From a virus (lineage: Duplodnaviria > Heunggongvirae > Uroviricota > Caudoviricetes), in IMG/VR virus record IMGVR_UViG_2563366968_000003: 44,977 nt of DNA. The stretch is one strand, 5' to 3'. Below, piece after piece: positions 1 to 1,307 of this stretch. The position numbers were made by a program, and so were the translations under genes. The notes below the pieces were generated by a model, which was given only the letters and a program-made list of their open reading frames with translations, ran no database searches and was not told where the DNA came from. Within the stretch, counting starts at the first letter, position 1; each line of letters starts with the position of its first letter.

Positions 1-189
1 TGACTTCCACCATGTTTTGCCATGGCAGAATCTGCTCCATGCGGGACAAGAAAATCTCTTTTCTGGTCTGACGGCGCTTACTGCTGAATTCACTGTCGGC
101 GAAGGTAAGTTGATGACTCATGATGAACCCTGTTCCATGGCTCCAGATGACAAACATGATCTCATATCAGGGACTTGTTCGCACCTTCC
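1..189 (-). mobile_element. insH: IS5, partial copy cut by window start (transposase C-terminal end and terminal inverted repeat)
   Basis: 1-189 matches the complete IS5 copy at 35358-35546 with one base difference; terminal repeat GGAAGGTGCGAACAAG (reverse strand) ends at 189, followed by TTAA. Confidence 0.9.
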
Positions 190-1307
190 TTAAACGGTAT
201 CCACACATCGGGAAGCGGCTGCAAAACTTGTTTATACGGCTCCGCAGCCTGGCTTGCATACTCTCTGGCTGCGTCTTCACTTGCTTTTGCAGCCGTCTGG
301 CTTGCAGCGGATGCTTTCGCCGAGTTAGTCGCCGCAGTCTCGCTCGCCTTTGCGTTGGTTTCACTGGTTTTTGCAGCTTTTTGACTGTTGGCTGATGCAG
401 TGGCAGAAGAAGCCGCCGCACTTGCAGAACCAGCTGCGGCACTCTCGCTTTGGGCCGCTGCATCCTGACTGTTTTTCGCCGCAGTTTCGCTGGCTTTGGC
501 ATTCGTTTCGCTGGTCTTCGCTGCCGTCTGGCTGGACTTTGCGTTAGTTTCGCTCGTCTTCGCTGCTTTCTGGCTGTTAGCTGCAGCAGTTGCTGATCCA
601 GCTGCTGAAGTCGCAGAACCGGCTGCCGCACTCTCGCTTTCGGCTGCTGCAGCCTGACTGCTTTTCGCCGCAGTTTCACTGGTTTTGGCATTCGTTTCGC
701 TTGTTTTCGCTGCCGCCTGGCTGGACTTTGCGTTGGTTTCGCTCGTCTTTGCTGCTGTCTCGCTATTTTTCGCGTTGTTTTCTGATTTTTTAGCTGCTGT
801 CGCGGAGTTTGCCGATGCAGTCTGCGAGGCCGCTGCCGCCTGTGCGCTGTTAGCTGCATTCGTTTCTGAGGTTTTCGCCGCGTTCTTCGATGATGCCGCT
901 GCTGTTTCTGATTTCTTTGCTGCCGCTGCGCTCTGAGAGGCGGCTTCAGCGTTGCGTGCTGCTTCTTCCACCATTGCCTCAAAACGACGCAATGCCTCCG
1001 GCATGACATCATCTTCCGTCATGGCACCGAGAAAATCATTCAGCGTACCAGGTCTGGAACCTTCATAGACGGTAATGGTTCCGGCATGTGAAGGCGGAAA
1101 ACCTTCAACCAGCAGGGTGACGCTGTACTGGCCATACTCGACATCCATGCTGTAACGCCCGGCTTCATCCGGATTTTCAGAAGCCACCGTGTTCACCAGT
1201 ACCGTGGTGCTGTTACGCTTTGCCTTCAGTTGAATAGTGCAGTTCTGTATTGGTTTTCCCGCACCATCTTTCAGCACACCTGAGATTTTTACTGCTGCCA
1301 TATCCAC
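190..1307 (-). pseudogene. stf: Side tail fibre Stf, N-terminal ~372 codons only; interrupted by IS5 at 189/190
   Basis: ORF 162-1307 translation begins MDMAAVKISGVLKDGAGKPIQNCTIQLKAKRNSTT, matching recalled lambda Stf N-terminus; reading frame runs into the IS5 end. Confidence 0.8.
424..801. repeat. In-frame tandem duplication, two 189-bp (63-codon) units inside stf encoding Ala/Ser/Thr-rich repeats
   Basis: Units starting at 424 and 613 are near-identical (GCAGAACC...GCTGCTGAAGTC); protein shows repeated AAKTSETNAK blocks. Confidence 0.6.

Follow-up and report, generated by a model that had tools for sequence, protein, structure and literature searches.

The insertion sequence IS5 of Escherichia coli K-12 (IS5A/insH; IS5 family, IS5 group) is 1195 bp long, with imperfect 16-bp terminal repeats, encodes a DDE transposase of 338/326 amino acids and is flanked by a duplicated 4-bp YTAR target. 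In Rac, a lambdoid cryptic prophage of K-12, the element interrupts lomR (lomR::IS5), a non-essential gene of the J-lom-stf region. The locus described here differs from that case in both prophage and gene, and includes a complete copy of the element (IS5b) that shares all of the above features with K-12 IS5, from which it is separated by few point differences; the insertion sites are lineage-specific.

IS5 duplicates its 4-bp target YTAR, and direct pairs of IS copies can remove prophage DNA (PMC5009759). In mutation-accumulation lines of K-12, a deletion between pre-existing IS5A copies located 35.6 kb apart removed the CP4-44 prophage on two occasions, and an 11.5-kb IS1A-IS1A deletion within CP4-6 recurred 12 times; most IS-mediated deletions in K-12 were short and involved a new insertion near an old copy, with two pre-existing copies participating in 14 of 98 events (PMC5009759). 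The IS5A-IS5A case (Lee et al. 2016, PMC5009759) resembles the present one in that the copies are direct, are separated by nearly the same distance (35.6 kb compared to 35.4 kb here) and bracket prophage DNA. In CP4-44 and CP4-6, however, the deletions have been observed, whereas here only the substrate is present, and the interval between the copies holds relBE and hokD.

For the interrupted gene, the closest parallel is phage lambda PaPa, in which a frameshift in stf causes the loss of the side fibres; this loss slows adsorption but does not reduce plaque number, and the side fibres are non-essential in lambda (PMC12617516). As in the locus analyzed here, the distal part of the side tail fibre is lost in lambda PaPa (compared to Ur-lambda) and the J central fibre is kept. 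The two cases differ in that the lesion is a 1-bp frameshift in lambda PaPa and an IS insertion here, the distal half of Stf here is a different module (NF048003), and the prophage here is defective anyway.

The window, that is, the whole stretch of 44,977 bp that was analyzed, carries two IS5 copies in a Qin-type prophage. The arrangement most probably results from two independent, ordinary IS5 transpositions into a full-length Qin homologue, one splitting stf and the other lying at a site in the early region. The IS, the prophage, the gene and the mechanism are all already known, and stf::IS5 together with a second direct IS5 copy is a case of routine prophage decay. It adds one more route of lambdoid prophage decay, via IS insertion in non-essential tail fibre genes, with direct IS pairs predisposing to large deletions. 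The significance lies mainly in annotation: stf in the window should be annotated as an IS5-interrupted pseudogene, and the prophage as defective because of its portal nonsense codon and its IS1-interrupted integrase gene.

Source scaffold and host prophage

The window is identical to sequence of the scaffold KB732375.1 (GCA_000350885.1; 2.09 Mb), where it begins at the first base after a run of 985 N, and its right edge falls inside IS1. Given the N gap on the left and the IS1 end on the right, the window is a draft contig with an IS repeat at either edge. To the left of stf, the scaffold contains two small genes, a tail-fibre-domain gene, a gene for a pin-type (pinQ-like) invertase/recombinase, ydfK and ynfT, followed farther left by ydfJ, ydfI, ydfZ and a GntR-type gene.

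The host element is a full-length homologue of the cryptic prophage Qin of K-12, as shown by its place at the ydfJ/rspB integration locus and its colinearity with K-12 Qin. The rspB flank is present in close full-length relatives (the ydfJ-rspB locus), and the window ends in IS1 before rspB. Identity to K-12 Qin along the colinear segments is 97.5-100%, and the window is also colinear with the prophage of strain B379. The genes common to the window and K-12 Qin include nohA, ynfO, ydfO, gnsB, cspI, the lysis genes, cspB/F, ydfT, ydfU, rem, hokD, relBE, ydfV, flxA, ydfW, dicC/A, ydfABC, dicF, dicB, ydfD and intQ. Unlike K-12 Qin, the window retains the full A-to-J set of head and tail genes, the replication region (32597-38596, the site of a 4.8-kb loss in K-12) and a full exonuclease gene; it carries two IS5 copies, an IS903-type element and IS1, whereas K-12 Qin carries IS2.

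Several lesions apart from the IS5 insertions were identified:

16627-18228, minus strand: portal gene B, with an in-frame stop codon at 16984-16986
22323-23379, transposase on the minus strand: IS903-type element of 1057 bp with perfect 18-bp inverted repeats (GGCTTTGTTGAATAAATC)
44775-44977: left end of IS1, which interrupts the integrase ORF (44132-44779) and in which the window terminates

The stop in the portal gene replaces codon 415 of 533 (W415*, in the context ...QMFLC*LEEAI), and 19 contigs from other samples code for the same 414-aa product; the nonsense mutation is therefore real and inherited, and should block head assembly. The IS903-type element is flanked by a 9-bp duplication (CTTTCCAGT), encodes a transposase (322-aa ORF) of the IS5-family profile NF033579, and occupies a site that is uninterrupted in K-12 Qin. 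The portal nonsense codon, the IS903-type insertion and the IS1 that cuts the integrase gene mean that the prophage is defective already. The IS903-type element apparently lies near the point at which sister contigs of about 22.2 kb end.

The left IS5 copy and the interrupted stf gene

The left end of the window contains the following features:

1-189, minus strand: terminal 189 bp of the left IS5 copy, IS5a (alignment to 35358-35546; match to the InsH N-terminus)
190-193, no strand: right-hand copy of the TTAA target-site duplication of IS5a, with bases that belong to stf (a single TTAA in intact stf)
162-1301, minus strand: truncated side tail fibre gene, stf' (ORF list; PF08400; gene order J-lom-stf)
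329-764, minus strand: tandem 189-bp (63-aa) Ala/Ser/Thr-rich repeat, 2.3 copies (Tandem Repeats Finder, 83% matches)
1366-1965, minus strand: lom (ORF list)
2035-5532, minus strand: J (ORF list)

The part of IS5a within the window comprises the terminal inverted repeat (...CTTGTTCGCACCTTCC on the plus strand) and InsH codons 1-52. Positions 1-189 are identical to positions 35358-35546, on the same strand, at 188 of the 189 sites; the sole mismatch, G at position 19 in IS5a versus T at 35376 in IS5b, is the one-base difference that had been noticed in the original prediction. Compared to IS5A of K-12, the 189 bp also contain a single mismatch, at IS5 position 1142.

The original prediction named one finding that would overturn it, namely, that the left copy were a mere IS5 fragment, and proposed extension of the sequence to the left. 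The source scaffold bears on both points. Beyond the N run, it contains 199 bp of the opposite IS5 end (L003:12287-12485), identical to IS5b, followed by a second TTAA (L003:12486-12489) and then by the rest of stf, which starts with CGATTCACTGGATATG..., the sequence found directly 3' of the single TTAA in intact stf genes. In an intact stf homologue, one TTAA is present exactly at the position of the IS5a junction. Both termini of IS5a are thus in place in the correct orientation, with the 4-bp YTAR duplication (TTAA) on each side. In silico restoration of the gene, by removal of everything between the two TTAA sequences together with one TTAA, yields an uninterrupted 2379-bp ORF of 792 codons, and residues 3-792 of the restored protein align with the intact 790-aa Stf of strain 19KM1831. 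Because the far IS5 end, the second TTAA and the rest of stf are found beyond the gap, and because excision restores stf, IS5a is a simple insertion with a TTAA duplication rather than the remnant of some larger rearrangement.

That IS5 begins abruptly at position 1 of the window reflects an assembly gap, not biology. The interior of IS5a is represented by 985 N in the only long record, compared to about 807 bp expected for a 1195-bp element; this gap estimate exceeds the need by 178 bp and leaves room for extra or altered sequence inside. Every one of the sister contigs with the stf::IS5 junction breaks inside IS5. The middle of IS5a is presumably plain IS5.

The truncated gene starts at ATG 1301, the annotated start in relatives, and its last native base is at position 190, which gives 370 codons and 2 nt. 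The product consists of 370 native residues (M1-F370) and nine residues encoded by IS5 (KEGANKSLI), followed by a stop codon at 162-164. An upstream GTG at 1307, two codons before the ATG, extends the native part to 372 codons, and the earlier estimate that stf is cut after about 372 codons fits the count from this GTG. A Pfam search identifies the prophage tail fibre N-terminal domain (PF08400) at residues 3-132 with E=2.5e-67, and the gene comes after J and lom, likewise minus-strand genes, in the order known from lambda; both features identify it as a side tail fibre gene. In place of a full-length ORF with a distal receptor-binding part, the window holds an ORF interrupted after codon 370; the distal 417-aa part of Stf, located beyond IS5a, contains a spike-fibre-like domain (NF048003).

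An exact look-up of the 379-aa truncated product identified eight contigs from several assemblies; in four of these contigs, a single SNP separates 9-11 kb of sequence from the window. Thus, stf::IS5 is an inherited allele and not a sequencing error, and it is carried by a clone found in several isolates and metagenomes. The gene is degraded by other routes in E. coli B REL606 and in strain TO6, a pattern that fits neutral decay of a dispensable gene. Given that the side fibres are dispensable in lambda, and that the prophage contains the portal nonsense codon and the IS1-disrupted integrase gene, the effect of side-fibre loss is likely to be small: the stf insertion alone would not kill the phage, and the portal and integrase lesions would weigh more.

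The repeat at 329-764 shows sub-periods of 21 and 42 bp, with segments AAKTSETNAKSSQ... Matches in relatives differ in length over this region, suggestive of variation in repeat number.

The complete right-hand IS5 copy

The second copy lies in the early region of the prophage:

34348-34351, no strand: left copy of the TTAG target-site duplication of IS5b (empty site in cq9 and AH21 is a single TTAG)
34352-35546, minus strand: complete IS5b, 1195 bp, with the transposase gene at 34498-35514 (K-12 IS5A alignment, NF033581, Pfam)
35547-35550, no strand: right copy of the TTAG duplication (empty-site comparison)

These coordinates bear out the description in the original prediction of a complete IS5 with TTAG duplications, in direct orientation relative to the left copy; its ends read GGAAGGTGCGAATAAG... 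and ...CTTGTTCGCACCTTCC. The element is 1195 bp long, is bounded by 16-bp imperfect terminal inverted repeats (GGAAGGTGCGAATAAG / GGAAGGTGCGAACAAG) and is identical to K-12 IS5A (273955-275149 in K-12) at 1191 of 1195 positions (99.7%), the differences being at positions 17, 307, 1025 and 1142. It encodes an intact DDE transposase InsH, in a 338-aa ORF without stops that matches the NCBIfam profile NF033581 (IS5-family, E=2.3e-109) and contains the Pfam domains DDE_Tnp_1 (PF01609) and DUF772 (PF05598). The 4-bp YTAR duplication (TTAG) has its counterpart in an empty site elsewhere: cq9, AH21 and many other E. coli genomes have a single TTAG with flanks of 100% identity. Since the flanks are joined via a single TTAG at 100% identity in many genomes, IS5b is a recent simple insertion.

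The T at 35376 is private to IS5b, and IS5a keeps the canonical K-12 base. This variant is IS5 position 1025 and replaces Gln by Lys in InsH (WQN to WKN; residue 47 of the 338-aa form).

The surroundings of IS5b are prone to IS insertion. Within 34100-34351, ISKpn26 is found at about 34105 in CP057259 and AH21 and IS1 at about 34175 in GCA_977064725.1, and ISEc22 insertions are annotated near this stretch in several genomes; none of these elements uses the TTAG site of IS5b. The possibility that this site is a hot spot shared with ISKpn26 of AH21 and CP057259 was considered and rejected: ISKpn26 lies 246 bp away and the TTAG is empty there. For the 43-aa ORF spanning the IS5b junction, a look-up gave no record. 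The 437-aa protein encoded next to IS5b is widespread.

Origin of the two insertions

According to the preferred scenario, IS5a inserted at TTAA in stf, splitting the gene after codon 370 of about 792, and IS5b inserted 35,357 bp away with the same orientation, at a TTAG within early-region DNA that is non-coding or part of a pseudogene; both tetranucleotides fit the IS5 target YTAR. What is left of stf encodes the N-terminal tail-attachment domain and the Ala/Ser-rich repeats, followed by nine IS-encoded residues, the distal receptor-binding half being severed. Each copy has its own matched duplication, different from that of the other, which indicates separate arrivals rather than a composite transposon. 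Indeed, it is hardly credible that both IS5 copies and the intervening DNA represent one 36.5-kb composite transposon carrying the prophage late region. The copies are near-identical and direct, and share the variants T17 and C1142 compared to K-12 IS5A, as would be the case for a composite element; however, the duplications are TTAA/TTAA and TTAG/TTAG, with no single duplication at the outer ends, and Qin prophages without either insertion are colinear with the DNA flanking the copies as well as with that between them. Also very unlikely is a left copy that is only an IS5 remnant or a scaffold misjoin, in which case a larger rearrangement or deletion would have cut stf and recombination would lack an intact second IS5. 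Such a reading could draw on the mere 189 bp of IS5 in the window and on the excess of N in the scaffold interior, but a 4-bp duplication and a seamless ORF would then be unexpected, whereas the two ends of IS5 are correctly oriented relative to each other, each is adjacent to a TTAA, and the flanks join into the uninterrupted 792-codon stf, which matches intact homologues.

The nature of the window, a draft contig with IS repeats at both ends, and the location of the mismatch between the copies 19 nt from the contig end raise the question of whether IS5b itself or the single-base difference is an assembly artefact of a repeated element. This appears highly improbable because misassembly would not create a precise TTAG duplication at a site that is empty in many genomes, and because it is the internal copy that has the variant base (T at 35376), the copy at the contig end agreeing with K-12. 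As a remaining alternative, stf::IS5 could have been selected rather than neutral, for example, by stopping expression of a tail fibre module, or by driving or uncoupling the downstream fibre and pin genes. The inheritance of the allele in a clone from several isolates and metagenomes and the position of the insertion, where the conserved N-terminal half of Stf gives way to the variable distal half, are compatible with selection, which is nevertheless decidedly unlikely considering that IS5 targets TTAA more often than any other site in E. coli (PMC5009759), that the prophage contains several unrelated inactivating lesions, and that stf is otherwise degraded in E. coli B and strain TO6, as neutral decay predicts. 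Two ordinary transpositions remain the preferred explanation.

Possible deletion between the direct copies

The DNA between the copies and the toxin-antitoxin genes within it are as follows:

190-34351, no strand: interval of 34,162 bp between the direct IS5 copies (ORFs; colinearity with K-12 Qin and B379; Rfam)
30358-30513: hokD, adjoining relE (100% identity to K-12 L018)
30585-30872, minus strand: relE (95-aa ORF; 100% identity to K-12 L018)
30872-31111, minus strand: relB (100% identity to K-12 L018)

The interval comprises stf', lom and J-I-K-L-M-H-T-G-V-U-Z-FII-FI-E-D-C-B-W-A-Nu1 (nohA); it also contains ynfO, ydfO, the IS903-type element, gnsB, cspI, the lysis genes, cspB/cspF, ydfT (Q), ydfU, rem, hokD, relBE, ydfV, flxA, ydfW, an ISNCY-type transposase gene and a sok-like RNA. 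The ORFs and the colinearity thus agree with the original prediction in that the direct IS5 copies bracket the morphogenesis and late region. The relE/relB genes, a type II toxin-antitoxin pair, lie within the bracketed interval, and the hokD-relE-relB stretch is 100% identical to 16975-19359 of the K-12 locus L018.

The original prediction further held that the two copies are a substrate for a deletion of about 34 kb. The direct orientation is confirmed and the mechanism is backed by precedent (PMC5009759), but the size has to be corrected: the repeat period, which is the size of the recombinational deletion, is 35,357 bp, that is, 34,162 bp of unique DNA and one IS5. The verified shared sequence between the copies amounts to at least 388 bp with one mismatch, and probably extends over the entire 1195 bp. 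RecA-dependent recombination between the copies would delete the 34-kb late region and would leave one hybrid IS5 with TTAA on one side and TTAG on the other. Such a deletion is a reasonable and mechanistically sound expectation because of the IS5A-IS5A and IS1A-IS1A precedents (PMC5009759). A search for the deleted form in 5,426 complete E. coli genomes, in the species-representative genomes and among the JGI metagenome contigs yielded none; the 5' and 3' IS5/stf junctions were both absent from the same 5,426 complete genomes, and exact-pattern scans for the right junction of IS5b and the outer junction of IS5a gave 0 matches among the JGI metagenome contigs and species-representative genomes.

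The presence of relBE and hokD inside the interval might select against its loss. Chromosomal toxin-antitoxin loci reportedly can counteract large deletions, a finding attributed to Szekeres et al. 2007. In a stronger version, which we consider rather unlikely, the late region would loop out at a measurable frequency, cells that lose it would be killed by RelE (possibly HokD) in the absence of the antitoxin, and the IS5 pair would persist as a toxin-antitoxin-protected block. If this were true, chromosomal toxin-antitoxin genes would be restraining IS-mediated prophage reduction in a natural setting.

Other features of the prophage

An Rfam search detects a sok antitoxin RNA at 33800-33971 on the minus strand (104 bits), a short distance upstream of the gene for the 437-aa ISNCY-type transposase (32413-33726), which suggests a second hok/sok-type locus besides hokD. 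The ISNCY-type gene is intact in the window and is annotated as a partial pseudogene in cq9, B379 and AH21. As in K-12 Qin, Rfam also identifies two cspA-type thermoregulator 5' leaders, at 24002-24388 and 26898-27290, upstream of cspI and cspB, and the DicF small RNA at 40622-40673.

The window represents a nearly complete, ancestor-like version of the K-12 Qin remnant and could help to reconstruct the reduction of Qin. The K-12 remnant is 20.5 kb long, and its deletion break points map to positions 20345, 32597/38596 and 42083/44268 of the window; they correspond to three losses: one of head and tail genes adjacent to nohA, one of 4.8 kb in the replication region, and an IS2-associated one in the region from the exonuclease gene to int. 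A shared end point of the K-12 deletions and the IS5 sites was considered and rejected because the K-12 break points coincide with neither site. The Qin prophage of strain B379 contains an independent IS5 (L016 24002-24982) between ydfC and dicB, where K-12 has dicF.
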